In this document: in pieces, positions 6,044 through 55,148 of the stretch | Position numbering within the stretch: the first letter of the stretch is position 1 | Layout: every line of letters begins with the position of its first letter | Source: Eledone cirrhosa | Lineage: Eukaryota | NCBI GenBank assembly: GCA_964016885.1 | Contig: OZ024746.1 | Coordinates: forward strand, 95,046,001 to 95,110,000 | Direction: 5' to 3' | DNA: 64,000 bases | Made by a program: the position numbers and the translations under genes | Notes under the pieces: model-generated | Database searches by the model: none | The model's input: the letters and a program-made list of their open reading frames with translations, nothing else | Told to the model about the DNA's origin: nothing

Positions 6044-6112
<69 letters not shown>

Positions 6113-6180
6113 CAAGGTTTAGCAAATAGCGAAAAAGTTTTAAAATAAATTTTTAAAACTTTACTGTACCTACTATATTT

Positions 6181-6264
6181 ACCCTTACCGCGCGGTTTCA
6201 AGTCTCAAAATAAATGGATAATCCATGCGGAAATACATTGAGAAGAAGACTTTCGTCAGAGGGT
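6181..6264 (-). ncRNA. Type I hammerhead ribozyme motif (intact core)
   Basis: Minus strand reads ACCCT-CTGACGA-AAGTCT...AGACTT-GAA-ACCGCGCGGT-A-AGGGT. Stem I ACCCT/AGGGT, stem II AAGTCT/AGACTT, palindromic stem III, GUA triplet. Lies in a ~265-bp insert between (TA)n tracts. Confidence 0.85.
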
Positions 6265-6374
6265 TCTTCTCACTCGGAGAATATAAAATTCCCGAGTTCA
6301 AAACACGGTCTGGCGCCATACAGAACTGTTCCCGGATGATAGTGTATGATGAAGAAACAATCCTATCTAGTGCC

Positions 6375-6434
<60 letters not shown>

Positions 6435-6810: not shown

Positions 6811-6993
6811 GAAAAAGTATGACCCTGACGGCAGAGCTCAAGCCGTTTCGACGGCTATTTCAGTCCAGAAATAGCCGTTGAAACTACATGAGCTCTGCCG
6901 TCGTACTTTTTTCCTATTACCCACTCTACTACCCTAAGTATTCAGTACTCTGGTGCGTTATGGTCCATCTGGTTCCTTAACACAACTCCTTCG

Positions 6994-6995
<2 letters not shown>
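6811..6995. mobile_element. Fold-back palindromic element in TA tract (hammerhead-3'-half family, copy 1)
   Basis: Imperfect ~100-bp palindrome 6811-6913 plus a tail shared with 23817-24012 and 49040-49222. Confidence 0.75.
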
Positions 6996-7233: not shown

Positions 7234-7810
7234 ATACCGTTTACCTGCCAACTGTCAGAGCTAGTGAAAATATATGATATTTTCTGGAATATACACTGGG
7301 TTTGCTAACGTGCAGATCTGACAGAGAGAGAGAAAGTGTGTGTGTGTGTTTCGACAGAGCTAGCTGGCAACAGACATGACTCCCTGTGAAATTTGGTAGC
7401 CTCGGCCTCTGAGCTACTTCTGACCTAACACTGCTGGTCTACCTATCTTCAATCACCTCCAATCGCACCCTCATACATACATATATACATACATACATGA
7501 TGGCTGTCCCCTCGTTATCGAGTATGGCCACTGCCGTCGAGGTCATACTTTTTCCTATATATATATATATATATATGCATATACATATGTGTGTGCGTGC
7601 ATCTGTGTACGTGTATGTAAGTATATATATATATGTATTTATGTATGTATATTGTACGCGTGTGTATGCCAGTTGCCATGGTCACAGTAATTAGGTGTGT
7701 GAATGATTACGAACACGAATATAAAAACCTTTAAGTAATGAAAGAGATACGAAACTAATGACTATGCTACGGTTATAACACGGTTTAAGCATCATTGTAA
7801 ATGTTTTTAA

Positions 7811-8017: not shown

Positions 8018-8351
8018 TTAAGTCAGTATTATCTATATCTGTATATTACTAAAAGTCTGAGATTGCTTGCTTGCTTGTCTGTAATGTAATACAGCCAAAA
8101 GGGCGCATAATGGGAAAATACTTTGAAAGGAAGTTGTCCCTGAAATGGGAATACAAATGGAATAAAACAAGTTTCGCGTAAATCGAAGCATGGGTTCCCG
8201 AGATATGGGGTTTTCTGGGTACCTTCATAAACAGAGAAAGAGAAAAATAGAGAGGAAGAGATAATGGTAGTGAGAGGGTAGATTGAAAGAGAGACATAGA
8301 GTGAGAGAGTAGATTGAAAGAGAGACATAGAGAGAGGAGACAGAAATGGAG

Positions 8352-8389
<38 letters not shown>

Positions 8390-8638
8390 TATATATGAGT
8401 GTGTGCGTGTATATGTATATATATATGTGTGTGTATATGTGTGTGTCTGTCTATGACCAGTGTATATATATCACAGAAACCCACATATATATATCTACAC
8501 ACACATACACATATATATATATGTATACAAACACACACATTTATATATATAGTTACGTTATTCCGGGTTGAATCGGAGGTAACCACAGTAAGTAAGGTAC
8601 TCAATACATAGCAGAGTATAAAAGTGTTAATATAGATG

Positions 8639-8689
8639 AGATTCTACAGGACTAGAACTGTTTCATTCTTTAGAAATCATCAGGAATCT
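8639..8689 (-). ncRNA. Type I hammerhead ribozyme motif inside Helitron
   Basis: Minus strand reads AGATTC-CTGATGA-T-TTCT-AA-AGAA-T-GAA-ACAG-TTCTAGTC-CTGT-A-GAATCT; GUA triplet. Confidence 0.8.
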
Positions 8690-9253
8690 GGCTTTCCAAA
8701 AATAAATAAATGTTGTGGTATTTATATCTTTTCAAGTGATAGGACAGGGTGGGGAGTGGGATGGGTAGAGGTCATTGGTTGATAGAAAGGGAATTCATTA
8801 AAAGCTAATTCTTTAAGGCTTATAATTTATATTTAGAGTAACAAAGGCAGAAAGAATTCTATAAACAAGTTTAGAATGGGGTGCCACTCCTTATTTTTAA
8901 GTTTCTCTTAAGCTAACAATGCCTATATTTCAGGTGTCTATAAGATCGTTGGGGGTCGGTCATGGTTGATGGATTTAAAGAAAAGGGAAATTCTTTAAAA
9001 GCTAATTCTTTAAAGTTCTACTTAGAGTGACAAAGGCCTAGAGAATTCTGTAAACCAGTTCAAAATATTTGTTTCTACTTTAGGCACAAGGCCAGCAATA
9101 ACCCAGTTCATTACTGGTACTTTATTTTATCGACCCCGTAGGGATGAAAGGCAAAGTCAACCTCGGCGGGATTTGAACTCAGTTCAAAATATTGGGTGCC
9201 TATCATATCATTAACTTCAAATTTCTCTTAAGCTATATTCCAGGTGTCGACAG

Positions 9254-9284
<31 letters not shown>

Positions 9285-9388
9285 TATACATATATAAATT
9301 AATAAAAACAATGAATAAAAACAAAGAACAAGTTCCTTATATTAAAAAATTCATTTTACGATCGTTTCTAGGATATATATGTATCTAC

Positions 9389-9447
<59 letters not shown>

Positions 9448-9568
9448 ATATATACACACACATACATATACATATACACACATATATATATATATATACA
9501 TATACATACATATATACATACAATAACATATACACACACATATATACACACACATATACACACACTTG

Positions 9569-9600
<32 letters not shown>

Positions 9601-9679
9601 TATACATACACACATACATACACATATATATACACATACATATATATATATATATACCCACACACACATACACACTCAT

Positions 9680-9713
<34 letters not shown>

Positions 9714-9929
9714 TACACACATAGATATATATATACACACAAATATATATACATATATATATATATACACATATATATATACATATACACATACATATAC
9801 ATATATATACATATACACATACATATACATATATATACACACATATATATATATATATATGTGTGTGTATGTGTGTGTGTGTATGTATATGTGTGTGTGT
9901 GTATGTATATATGTGTGTGTGTATGTATA

Positions 9930-9980
<51 letters not shown>

Positions 9981-10006
9981 ATATATATACATACACACAC
10001 ACATAC

Positions 10007-10052
<46 letters not shown>

Positions 10053-10298
10053 CCACACATATATATATATATATACATATATACATACACATACATATAC
10101 ACATACACATACATACATATATACATATACTCATACATATATATATACACATATATATATATATATACACATATATATATATATATATATATATTCACAT
10201 ATACAGATATATATATATACATATACACATATATATATACATATATACACACACATACTTATATATATATACATATACACATATATATATACACATAT

Positions 10299-10331
<33 letters not shown>

Positions 10332-10444
10332 CATACATACACACACGTATATATATGGGCCTTCCAATTTCATTTCACATTATATACATGTCTGTATATA
10401 TTTTAATTATTTAAAAAAATTTTTTAAGCGAACGTGACCCAACG

Positions 10445-10714
10445 GGTCACGGTTTGGTCTAGTTTACTACTAAAACTCTGGGTCACGGTTTGGTCTAGTT
10501 TACTACTAAAACTCTGGGTCACGGTTTGGTCTAGTTTACTACTAAAACTCTGGGTCACGGTTTGGTCTAGTTTACTACTAAAACTCTGGGTCACGGTTTG
10601 GTCTAGTTTACTACTAAAACTCTGGGTCACGGTTTGGTCTAGTTTACTACTAAAACTCTGGGTCATGGTTTGGTCTAGTTTACTACTAAAACTCTGGGTC
10701 ACGGTTTGGTCTAG
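10445..10714 (+). repeat. 36-bp tandem array, 7.5 near-identical units
   Basis: Unit GGTCACGGTTTGGTCTAGTTTACTACTAAAACTCTG; no spacers. Confidence 0.97.
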
Positions 10715-10729
10715 TTTACAGTAATATTA

Positions 10730-16519: not shown

Positions 16520-17023
16520 CTAACAGCGCTGCGATCGAATGTGGCTTTTTAGCCCAGCCAATGATCTAAAATGTCTTGCACAGAGCCGGCAACCAAAACA
16601 TTCACTGGAAATAGTCGGCTGTGGTTGGAGTTCATGTACTTTTGCATGTCGCTTGAGCCCTCCTGCTGATTTACATTCTCTACCACATGCTTGGCAAGCA
16701 CGATGAGTAGCATCTCCAACAGCAGCCTGGTAGTCAACCACTGGTCTTACTTTATGACTGCGAAGATGACTTTCGAGTCCAGCTTTGCTTAGGCAGAGTC
16801 TCGCACAGACGCTGCATGTTAGCACCATAGGAACACCCTCGCCGTCTGGAAGTGCAACAGCAATGTCCTTCCTCACATCCCGCTTTACTTTCTCGTATGC
16901 GATTCGAGATGCCTCAAAGGCAACTTTTCCCTCATATACAGTCTTTCTCCATTTATTACGATCAGCAGCAATATATTCCCTTGTATCAGCAGAGATGTTA
17001 GCGTCTTTCAAAGAGGTTTTCAA
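16520..17023 (-). mobile_element. RTE-clade LINE ORF C-terminus with three C2H2-type zinc fingers
   Basis: A.DR..WR motif typical of RTE C-termini, then CxxC-x12-HxxxH twice and a third finger ending HxxxQ. 5'-truncated and flanked by microsatellites. Confidence 0.7.
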
Positions 17024-17470
17024 TCCTTATACCTCTTTTTTGGTTTAACATACATACATACATACATACATACACACATACACACATACACACATACATA
17101 CATACATACATAGCTACCTAGTTGATGTTGTCTAAATCTCAATGGAAGAGACTCTCTCTGTTGGTAAAAAAATTATAAACTAATGAAACCAGAAGAACAT
17201 ACATACAAACATACACACATAAACACACGCACATACATACATATATACCTAGCATACATTTATACACACGCATGCATATACATACATACATACATACATA
17301 CATACATACATACATACATACATACATACATACATACATACATACATACATACATACATACATTACCTATGTCCACTTTTTCCGTCTCCAGGGGTATCCG
17401 ATTTTCTCAACTATGTATTATATATATATTGACCGACCGTTATTCTGGTCATTTCGGCGCTGAGACTATA

Positions 17471-23078: not shown

Positions 23079-23561
23079 TATATATATATGTGTGTGTGTG
23101 TTAGGTCACTCTCAAGTGCTACTGGTAACATGTAACCCAGTACAGCCTATCTTATGGTCGGTCGTCGGAGTCTAAACCGGCAACTCCGCCAAGCTCGCTT
23201 GGTGAGTAGGGTGATATTTGGACACCCTGCGGGATGAAATACAACACCCGGCAAAGGGCGGAGGAACTCAGCAGAGTCAGCGGCCATCCAAATAGTATAT
23301 TTTCTTTTCACCTGGGAGTAAAAGGCCCCCAGTTGTTGTCACAACACCTTTCTAGATTGAAATTCTGAAAAAAAAAACCTGCGGCTTCGGAAGCATCCGG
23401 TGATGTTGACAAGTTCGCCTTTTCGGGTAGAGTTTTTGATGTTCAGAGAGTGGGATTGGTTGAGTGCAAGGCCTTTCCCCACTTAAAAAACCTTCAAAGC
23501 ACAGGCATTGCTTGTTCAAGATCTGTTATAAGCGATTGCAATATTCTCAACAAAGTTTGCA

Positions 23562-23599
<38 letters not shown>

Positions 23600-23753
23600 G
23601 ATGGCTGCAACTCGATTTCGAGTAATGCCATGATAATTAAGCTTGCTTGATACTTAAACATGAGCATCATAGACGTGGCTTTTCATACACACACACACAC
23701 ACACATACACACACACACACACACATACACACACACACATACACACACACACA

Positions 23754-23785
<32 letters not shown>

Positions 23786-23816
23786 TACACATACACACAC
23801 ACACACATATATATAA

Positions 23817-24009
23817 ACCAAATAAAGTGTGGTAAGGAACCAAGTGAACTATAACGCACCAGAGTACTCGATACTTAGAGTAGTAGAGAGGGTAATAGGA
23901 AAAGAGTCAAGACCCCGACGGCTGAGCTCCGGCTGTTTCGACAGCTAGATCAGTTCGGATCTAGCTGTCGAAATGGCCGGAGCTCGGCCGTCGGGGGCCT
24001 CACTCTTTT

Positions 24010-24012
<3 letters not shown>
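23817..24012. mobile_element. Fold-back palindromic element (copy 2, opposite orientation)
   Basis: Palindrome ~23898-24012; tail is the reverse complement of the tail at 49160-49222. Confidence 0.75.
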
Positions 24013-24045
<33 letters not shown>

Positions 24046-32717: not shown

Positions 32718-33031
32718 GTATATTTTAAAGTATATTTTAAAATATACTTTAAAGTATATTTTAAAATATATTTTAAAGTATATTTTAAAATATACTTTAA
32801 AGTATATTTTAAAGTATATTTTAAAGTATATTTTAAAATATATTTTAAAGTATATTTTAAAGTATATTTTAAAATATACTTTAAAGTATATTTTAAAGTA
32901 TATTTTAAAATATATTTTAAAGTATATTTTAAAGTATATTTTAAAGTATATTTTAAAGTATATTTTAAAATATACTTTAAAGTATATTTTAAAGTATATT
33001 TTAAAATATACTTTAAAGTATATTTTAAAGT
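32718..33031. repeat. 12-bp quasi-palindromic AT minisatellite (~26 units)
   Basis: Variants GTATATTTTAAA / ATATATTTTAAA / ATATACTTTAAA. Confidence 0.95.
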
Positions 33032-39190: not shown

Positions 39191-40200
39191 CAGGGCGTAA
39201 CAGGTAAATTGAGACCATTTAAATATCTTTATGATATTTGGTATAACTTGGAAAATCAAATGCTACAAATTTTATGTTTATAGTAATTTATTGTGCAGTG
39301 TTTAGCATTTATTTCAGTTCAATTTGACCACTATTTGCTTTCTTTACCAGTTCAATCCATTTACGAAGTGACACACTGTTGTGAGAAGTTACGTTGGGTA
39401 TTGCTTCAACTGTGCCCCATAGCCAAAAATTACACGGATTCAAATCTGGCGAGCAAGAGGACCAGATATCTTTAGGGAGAAACAAGGGCAATTCTTTCTT
39501 GAAAATTTCTTGCACTCTTTTCGAAGAATGGGTGGATATGGAGTCTTGTACAAACATGACTCGACTTACATCATAGTTGTTTCTACTTTAGGCACAAGGC
39601 CAGCAATTATCCCAGTGTATTACTGGTACTTTATTTTATCGACCCCGTAAGGATGAAAGGCAAAGTTAACCTCGGCGGGATTTGAACTCGGACCATAAAG
39701 GGCCGTAACTCTTTGCTGCTAAGCATAGCGTCCGACCGTCTACCGACACTGCCAATCCACTGCATCATAATGCTTCCTAATCCAAGGCAACGAAACTTCT
39801 AAAATTTTAAAACCCGCTTCAATAAAATGAGGAGGCATCAATTTCCCATCACTTGCAACAGCTCCAAAGACCTTAATGGAAGCCGGATTCTTGCTATGCA
39901 TAGCTGAAGGAACTTGGGAAGGGTCATATGCTATGACTCGTGAGTTTTTTTATGGTTTGCAACTTCGTCTACCACGAACTTCTTTTCATCCACAAAGATA
40001 CGGACATCCCCACCACAATGTTTCAGATGACTACGACCTTTGGGACATCTTTCAGCTTGAATGGCTTTGGAGCAGGTAGTTCGGCTGTTACGGTGTCTCC
40101 TCACGTACGATTCCATATGGAGGTCTTTTATCACAGCCCTAGATACCGTCATTTTACGGAAGAACTCGGGAGAGTCAACGACCATCCTATACAATTTTAT
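39191..40200 (-). mobile_element. Tc1/mariner remnant, maT/DD37D type, interrupted by a SINE (39575-39762)
   Basis: TA|CAGGG end; IFVDEKKFVV and FVQDS.STH...SPDLNPCNFWLW with 37 residues to the last (mutated) Asp position. Confidence 0.85.
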
Positions 40201-47884: not shown

Positions 47885-48583
47885 TGGTGGCTTGGCAGTA
47901 TCGGTAGAGGGTCGGACGCCATGCTTTCCAGCATAGTTACGTCCCTATACGATCTGAGTTCAAATCCCGCCGAGGTTGACTTTGCCTTTCATTCTTACGG
48001 GGTCGATAAAATAAAGTACCAGTAATACACTGGGATAATTGCTGGCCTTGTGACAAAAGTAGAAACAATTATTATCTATATAATAGTATCGGTAGAGGGT
48101 TGGACGCCATACTTTCTAGCATAGTTACGTCCCTTTACAGTCTGGGTTCAAATGCCGACCTCATTTGGTTGCTGAGTGGGGTGGACCTCGTCAAATCGGA
48201 CCAAGGAAACAATGTTTCCATTGGTCTTTCCATTGCTGACACTATCTACCGGTCGCGACTCGTGACAGAAGGAGAAACGTGAAATAAAGTGTCTTGCTCA
48301 AGGACACAACTCACAACCTCTCGATTGCGAATTCAACTTTCTAACCACTAAGCCACACGCTTTCTGAAACCATTATTTTATTCCATTACGGGCGGTGGAT
48401 TGGCAGTATCGGTAGAGGGTCGGACGCCATGCTTTACAGCATAGAGTTACGTCCCTTTACGGTTTGAGTTGAAATCCCGCCGAGGTTAACTTTGCCTTTC
48501 ATCCTTACGGGGTCGATAAAATAAAGTACCAGTAATACACTGGGTAATTTGCTGGCCTTGTGCCAAAAGTAGAAACAATTATT
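47885..48583 (+). mobile_element. SINE cluster (main family, plus an inverted SINE head of another family)
   Basis: A/B boxes and bodies at 47885, 48083 and 48389. Confidence 0.85.
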
Positions 48584-48905
48584 ATCTATATAATACTAAA
48601 AGTCTGTGATTGCTTGCTTGTTTGTCTGTAAAAAGGGCGCATAATGGGAAAATACTTTGAAGGGAAGTTGACCCTGAAATGGGAATACAAATGGGATAAA
48701 ACAAGTTTCGCGTAAATAGGAGCACGGGGTTCCGAGGTATGGGGTTTTTCCGGGTACCTTCATAAACAGAAGAAGAGATGGATAGAAAGAAAGAGATAGT
48801 GGTTGTGAGAGAGTAGATTGAAAGAGAGAGATAGAGAGAGGTAGAGGAGACAGAGAAGGAGAATGAGAGAGAGAGAGAGAAGGAAAGAGAGAGAGACGGT
48901 GGAGT

Positions 48906-48947
<42 letters not shown>

Positions 48948-49039
48948 TGTGTCTGTATGTGTGTGTGTCTATAACCAGTGTATATAGATCACAGACGCCC
49001 ACATATATATATATACACACAGATAGATATATATATATA

Positions 49040-49222
49040 AACGAGTAGGACCCCGACGGCTGAGCTGAAGCCGTTTCGACGGCTAATTCTGGACTAGAAT
49101 TCTAGTCCAGAAATAGCCGTCGAAACGGCTTGAGCTCAGCCGTCAGGGCCCTACTCGTTCCTATTACCCACTCTACTACTCTAAGTATTGAGTACTTTGG
49201 TGCGTTATGGTCCATCTGGTTC
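49040..49222. mobile_element. Fold-back palindromic element (copy 3)
   Basis: ~120-bp near-perfect palindrome centred on GAATTC at 49097-49102. Confidence 0.8.
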
Positions 49223-49240
49223 CTTACCTCATTTCCTTCG

Positions 49241-49298
<58 letters not shown>

Positions 49299-49354
49299 GT
49301 GTGTGTATGTGTATATATATAAATGTGTGTGTTTGTATACATATATATATATCT

Positions 49355-49385
<31 letters not shown>

Positions 49386-49468
49386 CGTTATTCCGGGTTG
49401 AATCGGAGGTAACCACAGTAAGTAAGGTACTCAATACATTGCAGAGTATAAAAGTTTTAATATAGATG

Positions 49469-49570
49469 AGATTCTACAGGACTAGAACTGTTTCATTCTT
49501 TAGAAATCATCAGGAATCTCAGATTCTGATGATTTCTAAAGAATGAAACAGTTCTAGTCCTGTAGAATCT
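49469..49570. ncRNA. Divergent pair of hammerhead motifs (49469-49519 minus, 49521-49570 plus)
   Basis: Same sequence as 8639-8689, duplicated in inverted orientation within the palindrome 49452-49587; the plus copy lacks one C of stem I. Confidence 0.8.
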
Positions 49571-49937
49571 CATCTATATTAAAACTTATATATATATATA
49601 TATATGGGCCTTCCAGTTTCATTTCACATTATATACATGTCTGTGTATATTTTAATTATTTAAAAATTATTTTTAAGTGAACGGGATTTTTTTTTAATAT
49701 TTTGAAGTGAACATGACCCAACGGGTCACAGGTGGTCTAGTTCGATATAAAGTTCACGAATGCATTTTAAATAAATATTTGCTTCAAATTTGAACGTCTA
49801 CTATTGATATGGTATTTTGGATTCTAGTGTGGATTTTTGCCTCTTAAAAATAGATTCCATTTAATTGCCGAGTCCATAAATTTAACCTAAATAAATTGGA
49901 CTATTCAACTTTTACATGATTATATACTTTAGACATA

Positions 49938-53473: not shown

Positions 53474-54129
53474 GAAAAAGGAATAAAATAATCAAATCAA
53501 ATCTAATCTGGCCGAGTTTACACTCGCAAATAAGAAAAACCAGGGCCGCCCCTAGGAGCATTGGATTTGGTGTACTTCATATTTGTTTCGGTTGCTGAAT
53601 ACAATCAGGGGTCACTGCTTCTCCTGAAGGTCAATAGTTCTCTTCTAACTTGAGCGGGAGTGCATTTCCATTGTCAATTTGCATTGATCATCTGCAAAGC
53701 CGCATTGTTCTCAGAACCACTATACCAATCTTTCGATGCAGTTGGAACTACTGCCACCCATTGATTTGGCATGATTTTTTTTTTTTTTTAGATGGTTATT
53801 GACTCTTATGAGTTCTTCCGCCCTTTGTCAAGTTTTGTTTTTTGTCCTGCAGAGTTTCCAAAATCACCCTCCTCACCAAGTAAACTTGGTGGGGTTGCTG
53901 GTTTAGTCACCAACGACCCGACCATGCGACAGATTGTACTGGGTTACATGCTACCAGTAGCACTCGAGAGTGACCTGACATAAAACAGCTGCTTGCTATT
54001 CTAAAACCGAGATGGCCAACTAAATATGAACCTATGATTTTTTTTCTCCCCAATTTTTCTTATTATTTTTTCCCCGTGCCTTCCTCTTGTCGTTCTTTGC
54101 TTTCTATTTATCTTCTATTTCTAGCTCTA

Positions 54130-54165
54130 TCTTCTGATGAAGGACTAGTGTCCGAAACGTTAAGA
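54130..54165 (+). ncRNA. Minimal type I hammerhead ribozyme (tandem copy 1)
   Basis: TCTT-CTGATGA-A-GGAC-TAGT-GTCC-GAA-ACGT-T-AAGA. Confidence 0.8.
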
Positions 54166-54268
54166 CTATCTTCCGGCTATTTCAAGCGTTAAACTGTGTA
54201 CTGTGCCGTTTGTTTTGTTATTTTTGTTATTACTTTTACACACACATACGTGTGCGTATTTGTTTGTG

Positions 54269-54313
<45 letters not shown>

Positions 54314-54417
54314 ATGTTCGACTGAATACGCACGTGTGGTTTTTTTTGTTCTCATTTTCCCCTCTTCCTTCCTCTTATCGCTCTTTACTTTCTATTTATC
54401 TTCTATTTCTAACTCTA

Positions 54418-54453
54418 TCTTCTGATGAAGGATTAGTGTCCGAAATGTTAAGA
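54418..54453 (+). ncRNA. Minimal type I hammerhead ribozyme (tandem copy 2)
   Basis: TCTT-CTGATGA-A-GGAT-TAGT-GTCC-GAA-ATGT-T-AAGA, 288 bp downstream of copy 1. Confidence 0.7.
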
Positions 54454-55148
54454 CTCTCTTCCTGCTATTTCAAGCGTTAAACTAATATATTTCTTCCATG
54501 TACTGTGCCGTTTTCTTTGTTATTGTTATTTCCGTTTACCTTTTACATATATATATATTTATTCACACTAGTTTCCTCATCGTTGTTATTACAGTCACAA
54601 TCTTTCCACCATTGGGCCCTCCATTTTTATTCAGGTGCCAGTCGTCGTAATAGGTAATGTTCTCGTAATTTCAAAGCGAACCTTTTAATTCAAACCACGT
54701 GGTACATCGTTCCTACGTTGTCCATCACTGAAATATTCTCTTATAAGTTACATTTGGATACTCAAGAGATGTAATGGGATCTCAGACAGGCTAGCAAGGA
54801 ATGTAGGCTTTCTATGTGGTTGATGTAAAGGAACAATAAGGAGCAAGGGCTCACAGGAAACAAGGCCCTTTAAATGTCCAGAAGGTTCCTTAAAAGTAGT
54901 CAATAGCCTCTGTCTCTCTCGCTCTCCCCTTCTTTCAATATTATAAGCAAATGGGGGTTCACGCGCTGACCGCACTGCGGCCCCGACGGTCAGAATAGAG
55001 AAGGTATTTCCCCAGGATAATAGATAATGGAACAATACTGAAGGATGATAAGATCACAAAAAGATTAGGTTTAAACTTTTAATTCCCACCGTTGACGCTG
55101 CGGCCGACTAGTTCAGAAGTTTGCTTCACAATAATTAGGTCCCATATA

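Follow-up and report, generated by a model that had tools for sequence, protein, structure and literature searches.

Family A, a repeat that recurs within the window (the whole 64,000-nt stretch of Eledone cirrhosa DNA analysed here), is most likely an unusually small and abundant form of the known insertion layout of Penelope-like elements (PLEs). With a probability of roughly two in three, it represents a non-coding miniature of the PLE 3' end, namely the pLTR plus tail, that is mobilised in trans. The element displays several PLE-type features, including a head-to-head inversion, a one-sided tail and a (TA)n target, and each full copy is arranged in the order (TA)n, arm, centre, arm, tail and (TA)n. 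Three full copies (6811-6994, 23816-24011 and 49040-49241) and one 24-bp arm stub at 7531 are found in the window, and every full copy (3/3) is flanked on both sides by (TA)n.

The copy at 49040 begins directly after (TA)n with a mirror, tail-less arm (49040-49085, minus strand), followed by a 28-nt centre (49086-49113) that presents a 6-nt loop in both orientations about an axis between 49099 and 49100, within AATT. The tail-bearing arm (49114-49163) and a 78-nt one-sided tail (49164-49241), both on the plus strand, complete the element, after which approximately 29 TA units follow. The copy at 6811 (plus strand) bears a 14-nt centre (6858-6871) with the loop AGTCCA and a 7-nt deletion in its tail arm, and the copy at 23816 (minus strand), a member of a diverged subfamily, has a 14-nt centre (23948-23961) in which the loop lies flipped with respect to the tail. 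The stub (approximately 7531-7555, minus strand) comprises the outer 24 bp of the tail-less arm beside (TA)n, joined to a second repeat. Scanning the whole window for hairpins yielded 11 matches, of which four lie outside simple repeats (6827-6902, 23895-24014, 49040-49159 and 49447-49592); repeat finding over the same stretch was swamped by microsatellites. By the perfect-stem finder, 49040-49159 forms a loop-less perfect stem of 120 bp, 23895-24014 a 120-bp hairpin with a 6-nt loop, and 6827-6902 a 76-bp core that reaches ~105 bp when its frayed ends are counted. The copies share 76-80% pairwise identity (BLAST, E 1e-33 to 1e-49), and their tails, of 78, 80 and 78 nt and on one side only, are identical at 64-71 of 78 positions. 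The stems, alignments and tails thus bear out the description, given in an earlier note on this DNA, of three hairpins that share a tail, but the element ends at 49241 rather than at 49222 as that note had placed it. The predicted RNA fold of the 49040 copy has an energy of -120 kcal/mol (z -15.6), which none of 200 shuffles equalled.

Family A is real and abundant. When four public sequencing runs were compared with 49040-49243, this region was matched by 17,129 of 17.1 million contigs (run X1), by 23,145 of 12.5 million RAD reads (run X9), and by 3 and 10 records in the runs of two other organisms. A left end common to copies is seen in 988 RAD reads that read (TA)n-GGAAAAGAGTC, and the right end in 1,074 RAD reads that carry a short variant tail end with (TA)n behind 49228. 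The contigs hold more centres than the three present in the window, and one X1 joint displays a different centre whose axis is AATT. The dip in depth at the centre was not taken as a count; ends at 49088 and 49098 suggest that the RAD reads are broken at AATT, and hairpins interrupt the contigs.

PLE insertions commonly comprise an inverted 5'-truncated copy with a tail at one end and a bias towards microsatellites, according to the available text of PMC8557442. In the portions of Arkhipova (2013; PMC3846280) and Craig (2021; PMC8557442) that describe them, EN+ PLE insertions with inverted pLTR and tail resemble family A in their head-to-head inverted copy, palindromic junction and one-sided extension, as well as in a microsatellite or AT-rich target and a target-site duplication that is variable or absent. 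The flanks of family A are (TA)n, as is the empty site in a homologous Helitron-like element copy at 8030, and a target-site duplication of fixed length is indistinct. Family A differs from these insertions in its size (~200 bp), its lack of an ORF, its tail of 78-80 nt, which is twice the canonical 30-40 bp, and a hammerhead that is reduced to the 3' half. No Pfam match to an RT or GIY-YIG domain was obtained among the 14 window ORFs tested, nor was an autonomous PLE partner found among them, and family A itself is non-coding. A SINE-like repeat points to an octopus as the host, and in Octopus vulgaris, PLEs make up 6.83% in 190 families, by the accessible part of PMC13282606.

The PAc Poseidon of Anolis (Frangieh 2024; PMC11167929, in the sections available) is comparable with family A, as interpreted here, in its two set cDNA starts that bound the tail, in the ~90 nt that separate its hammerhead cleavage site from the end downstream, and in needing no ribozyme cleavage to insert, whereas it differs in being autonomous and in bearing a full hammerhead. 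The same sections describe a PLE RT that in vitro cuts and extends both target strands, begins cDNA at two internal sites bounding the tail, and inserts with ribozyme cleavage dispensable. In the Anolis PLE, 85-92 nt separate the cleavage site from the main start on its 3' side (+26 vs +111-118). In family A, where the 3' half of the hammerhead only is present, the distance from GUC to the end of the element is 92, 97 and 101 nt, and that from the cleavage site to the end in three hammerhead-bearing families of the window is 89 (family B), 75 (family C) and 96 nt (family D).

The hammerhead 3' half of family A is probably a ribozyme remnant. Its putative location is 49122-49144 on the plus strand (GAAACGGCTTGAGCTCAGCCGTC), where GAAA, a 6-bp stem III with palindromic GAGCTC in its loop, and GUC follow one another. 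The occurrence of GAAA, stem III and GUC in the best arm had been proposed earlier and is upheld here, and a half-motif composed of YGAAA, a Watson-Crick stem of at least 5 bp and UH is found in 3 of the 6 family A arms. When the arm was shuffled with dinucleotides preserved, 26 of 10,000 sequences contained this half-motif, a measure chosen after the fact, and a chance origin is therefore unlikely. Hammerhead ancestry is, overall, quite probable. The absence of CTGANGA was likewise noted correctly, as it is found on neither strand in the ranges scanned around the three copies and the stub, and a CTGANGA-bearing family A parent is not present in the 64-kb window. PLE hammerheads, in the available portions of Cervera and de la Pena (2014; PMC4209133), share a type I topology and a palindromic loop 3 with family A, and include motif pairs on opposite strands 100-700 bp apart, most being single motifs from truncated PLEs; family A differs in being without CUGANGA and in having a stem III of 5-6 bp rather than a minimal one.

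Family A is predicted to be inactive in self-cleavage. Rfam returned no match at the gathering threshold for the whole window, missing family B too, and none of the 55 sub-threshold matches in 48500-49800 is a hammerhead. The arms are built of six alternating 6-mers, ACGGCT/AGCCGT, with GAAA as a spacer between them, and a lone arm folds with GAAA in a tetraloop and not as stem III. The placement of the symmetry axis at the loop of stem II, as the earlier note had it, is not established, since any inversion makes a stem I and a stem II. The further suggestion that the hairpin supplies a trans-cleavable substrate half was rejected on the folding of the 49040 copy: with both GAAA and GUC held within the -120 kcal/mol stem, such a role is unlikely.

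Family B displays the same layout with a complete core. At 49386-49592 (minus strand), 145 bp downstream of the 49040 copy of family A, a hairpin with a one-sided tail of ~61 nt bears a complete type I hammerhead core, in which stem I is followed by CTGATGA (49513), a weak stem II and GAAAC, and then by a stem III with CTAG in its loop and the cleavage triplet GTA; in ViennaRNA, stem I forms and the full hammerhead fold does not. The axis of family B is located at the 5' strand of stem I, and the ribozyme has thereby survived. A second copy (8556-8780, minus strand) is not inverted. It is 98.5% identical to the 49386 copy up to the axis (8689) and then continues uninverted. Counted from stem I, TATAAATA lies at -37 and CCAAT at -89; TATAWAWR occurs at a frequency of 0.0011 per base outside TA runs. 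This copy may be a candidate for the non-inverted parent pLTR of family B, in which case the axis of family B would lie near the RNA 5' end, or alternatively the two copies may differ by a later deletion at the hairpin apex. Tail homology between families A and B is weak and was not retained as support, being significant for one of three copies (9/2,000 shuffles, against 263 and 324/2,000 for the other two), and a tail hairpin common to both families was rejected as it goes against the read majority (49180 T>C in ~93%).

Other sequences near family B, or with hammerheads of their own, are also present. Upstream of the non-inverted B copy, 8690-9260 holds two diverged units of ~190 bp, which are split around 9070-9195 by a SINE-like repeat whose target duplication measures 11-12 bp. 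A 62-bp CA/TA microsatellite block beside the B tail (49312-49375) recurs in opposite orientation in the other Helitron-like copy, at 8490-8552, with 60/62 reverse-complement identity, a flip attributable either to inversion between (TA)n tracts or to independent B insertions. At 6111-6375 (minus strand), a 265-bp insert between (TA)n runs bears a complete type I hammerhead (CTGACGA at 6259) with a 52-nt stem/loop II and a stem III that holds the palindromic CCGCGCGG, and resembles a solo pLTR or a retrozyme monomer. Two head-to-tail minimal PLE-type hammerheads (CTGATGA at 54134 and 54422) with (TA)n between them occupy 54070-54546 (plus strand), in the form of a partial-tandem pLTR.

The arms of family A are more alike within a copy than between copies, which indicates that the mirror arm is templated. 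The six arms vary at 28 columns, and at 11 of these a state confined to a single copy occurs in both arms of that copy (6 clean substitutions and 5 in the gap-ambiguous end); the one same-side column shared by two copies falls within the gap-ambiguous end. Because the 23817 copy accounts for 8 of the 11 symmetric columns and variants of this kind are found in many reads, templating is established per subfamily rather than per insertion; templating at each insertion is presumed. The centres differ in sequence from copy to copy, as the earlier note had stated, but those of the 6811 and 23817 copies share a 14-nt form of 4 bp, 6 nt and 4 bp, and lie equally far from GAAA. Read with respect to the tail, the loop is AGTCCA in 6811 and the reverse complement of AGTTCG in 23817, and the two match at 8/14 positions when flipped versus 6/14 unflipped, in a comparison of two copies only. 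The 49040 centre carries both loop orientations around its AATT axis. Although three copies only are concerned, the flipped and doubled loops are suggestive, and are easier to reconcile with two joined cDNAs than with one that folds back.

A mechanism consistent with the PLE layout would have a PLE reverse transcriptase/GIY-YIG endonuclease act in trans on family A. The endonuclease would nick (TA)n, and cDNA would start at two set sites, namely the tail end and a TTCC/TA site 78-80 nt upstream, such that the two set ends of family A may correspond to these two start sites. The cDNA would extend to about the hairpin apex, and the mirror arm would arise from two cDNAs joined at a short self-complementary word, or from snap-back. 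Two cDNAs that end near the apex would anneal only through a self-complementary word, which would yield flip, flop and double loops, whereas a single fold-back would yield one loop orientation relative to the tail. With the apex 3' of the former CTGANGA position, the 5' half of the ribozyme would be lost, and for that reason could not be regained; family A would now spread without a working ribozyme, from palindromic or single-arm masters. Self-priming, as invoked in the earlier note, had already been proposed for Penelope elements, palindromes at the inverted PLE junction having been read in this way in 2013 (PMC3846280). The making of PLE inverted ends is called open in the available portions of PMC8557442 and PMC11167929. 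A more specific reading is offered tentatively here, in which family A would be a self-perpetuating, ribozyme-less palindromic PLE miniature whose palindromic copies are the masters, the mirror arm being rebuilt at each insertion by the joining of two cDNAs primed on opposite (TA)n strands.

The origin put forward in the earlier note, in which every copy is made afresh from a hammerhead-complete parent, a single cDNA of which doubles back on itself at a real stem II and primes its own synthesis, seems unlikely. Centres do vary, family B appears in both non-inverted and inverted form, and self-priming has been proposed for PLEs (PMC3846280, in part), but a fold-back keeps the orientation of the loop relative to the tail, and this orientation is flipped in the 23817 copy. 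Among the 21 loose ends listed of 413, none bears CTGANGA, nor does any fall at the point at which a parent possessing a real stem II would part from the mirror arm, and the single-arm records in the other two organisms end at 49103-49110, within ~10 nt of the axis. At 49103, where 775 reads and 94 contigs have loose ends, the sequence beside the element is AAAAATT(C/T)TAATT and becomes mixed farther out, with an agreement of 0.46-0.55. Since the loose ends listed include none of the parent type and the upstream sequence is mixed, a hammerhead-complete parent of family A is not abundant, and a rare one may exist. What is supported of the fold-back proposal is the retro-element origin and the templated mirror arm; its CTGANGA parent and true stem II axis are putative.

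Somewhat more doubtful is the explanation that family A is a palindromic DNA transposon, a MITE with a TA target that landed in or acquired an 80-bp tail and in which the hammerhead-like words are chance spacers between transposase-binding 6-mers. The palindrome taken alone reads TA/GG...CC/TA, its arms consist of the six alternating 6-mers, and Rfam recognises no ribozyme; palindromic Harbinger repeats exist in frog, and the MITE described in the available part of PMC5625713 is similar in its self-folding 100-200 bp, high copy number and potential as an ADAR substrate. However, the tail of family A lies outside the inverted pair and has remained joined to it in 3/3 full copies over ~20% divergence, the unit as a whole is without terminal inverted repeats, the centres vary and flip in place of one invariant internal sequence, and family B, with the same layout, has a full core. 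Palindromic MITEs thereby differ from family A, with its constant one-sided tail, lack of unit-wide TIRs and variable centre. Three centres are present in the window where an ordinary MITE, as envisaged in the earlier note, would have had one, and the non-inverted CTGANGA parent that the note also envisaged was not found in the window.

Least likely is a single-stranded-DNA element of Helitron/Helentron- or HUH-type that moves by a rolling-hairpin route, its flip/flop loops arising from hairpin resolution by analogy with parvovirus ends, for while nested hairpins, the flip/flop loop, a zero-spacer apex and Helitron-like elements in the same genome are in keeping with it, family A has neither 5' TC nor 3' CTRR ends, is missing at the homologous (TA)n in the Helitron copy at 8030 and so moves independently of it, and retains a hammerhead geometry that this route leaves unexplained.

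The 49040 copy of family A and the neighbouring family B copy reside in the microsatellites of a host element at 48585-49740 (plus strand; 5' TC, 3' hairpin plus CTAG, inserted between A and T) that we take from such hallmarks to be Helitron-like. This non-autonomous element is present in two copies, 48585-49740 and 8030-10464, the latter of which ends in 7.7 tandem units of 36 bp (3' hairpin arm plus CTAG; 10444-10719). The 8030 homologue is without family A at the same (TA)n, and family A was therefore inserted independently of the host. Elsewhere in the window, 23557-23610 holds a short inverted pair, TTGCAGCCATCAT and ATGATGGCTGCAA, on either side of a (TA)n run; the right member of the pair starts a repeat found also at 7490, 16172 and 40493, and 32718-33011 is a near-palindromic array of ~300 bp built of a 14-bp TTTAAAGTATATTT-type unit. 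A 168-aa frame with C2H2 zinc-finger matches (16520-17026, minus strand) is presumably a LINE C-terminal fragment, and a weak DDE_3 match (39309-39587, minus strand; E 0.006, below the cut-off) is likely a Tc1-type transposase remnant.

Family A is a variant of the known PLE inverted-end layout that is previously undescribed in the literature found, which holds no description of the family or of half-hammerhead palindromic PLE miniatures; Repbase and Dfam, which may list it, fall outside that scope. Three motif strings are absent from one supplement of PMC13282606 (the 5,371 characters available), and the accessible parts of PMC12602865 and PMC8967140 add nothing on family A. Pattern scans gave 1 match in a metagenome, 0 and 0 in viral sequences, and 0 and 2 in prokaryote genomes, and these 3 matches, of 22-28 nt and without palindrome or tail, were rejected as chance. 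Non-LTR retrozymes, in the available portions of PMC7229834 and bioRxiv 10.64898/2026.07.22.740005, are likewise short, non-autonomous, PLE-derived and hammerhead-related, but they form head-to-tail tandems or monomers with complete ribozymes, whereas family A is head-to-head and carries half a ribozyme; no head-to-tail retrozyme monomer with a complete hammerhead was found in it.

Such elements resemble MITEs and are probably retro-elements, a distinction of consequence for annotation. Family A would lend natural support to the dispensability of ribozyme cleavage described in vitro (PMC11167929, in the sections available), and as a high-copy family of 200 bp with set ends and countable loop orientations, it makes twin-priming versus fold-back testable from an assembly. 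In octopus, the share of potential dsRNA loci is unusually high (PMC5625713, in part), and each copy of family A, if transcribed, would be a near-perfect hairpin of 50-60 bp and a putative ADAR or Dicer substrate. If palindromic copies do serve as masters, family A would be the retro-mobilised counterpart of a MITE, its flip, flop and double-loop junctions would be a record of the Penelope second-strand step, and the family would constitute a large source of ready-made dsRNA hairpins in the genome.
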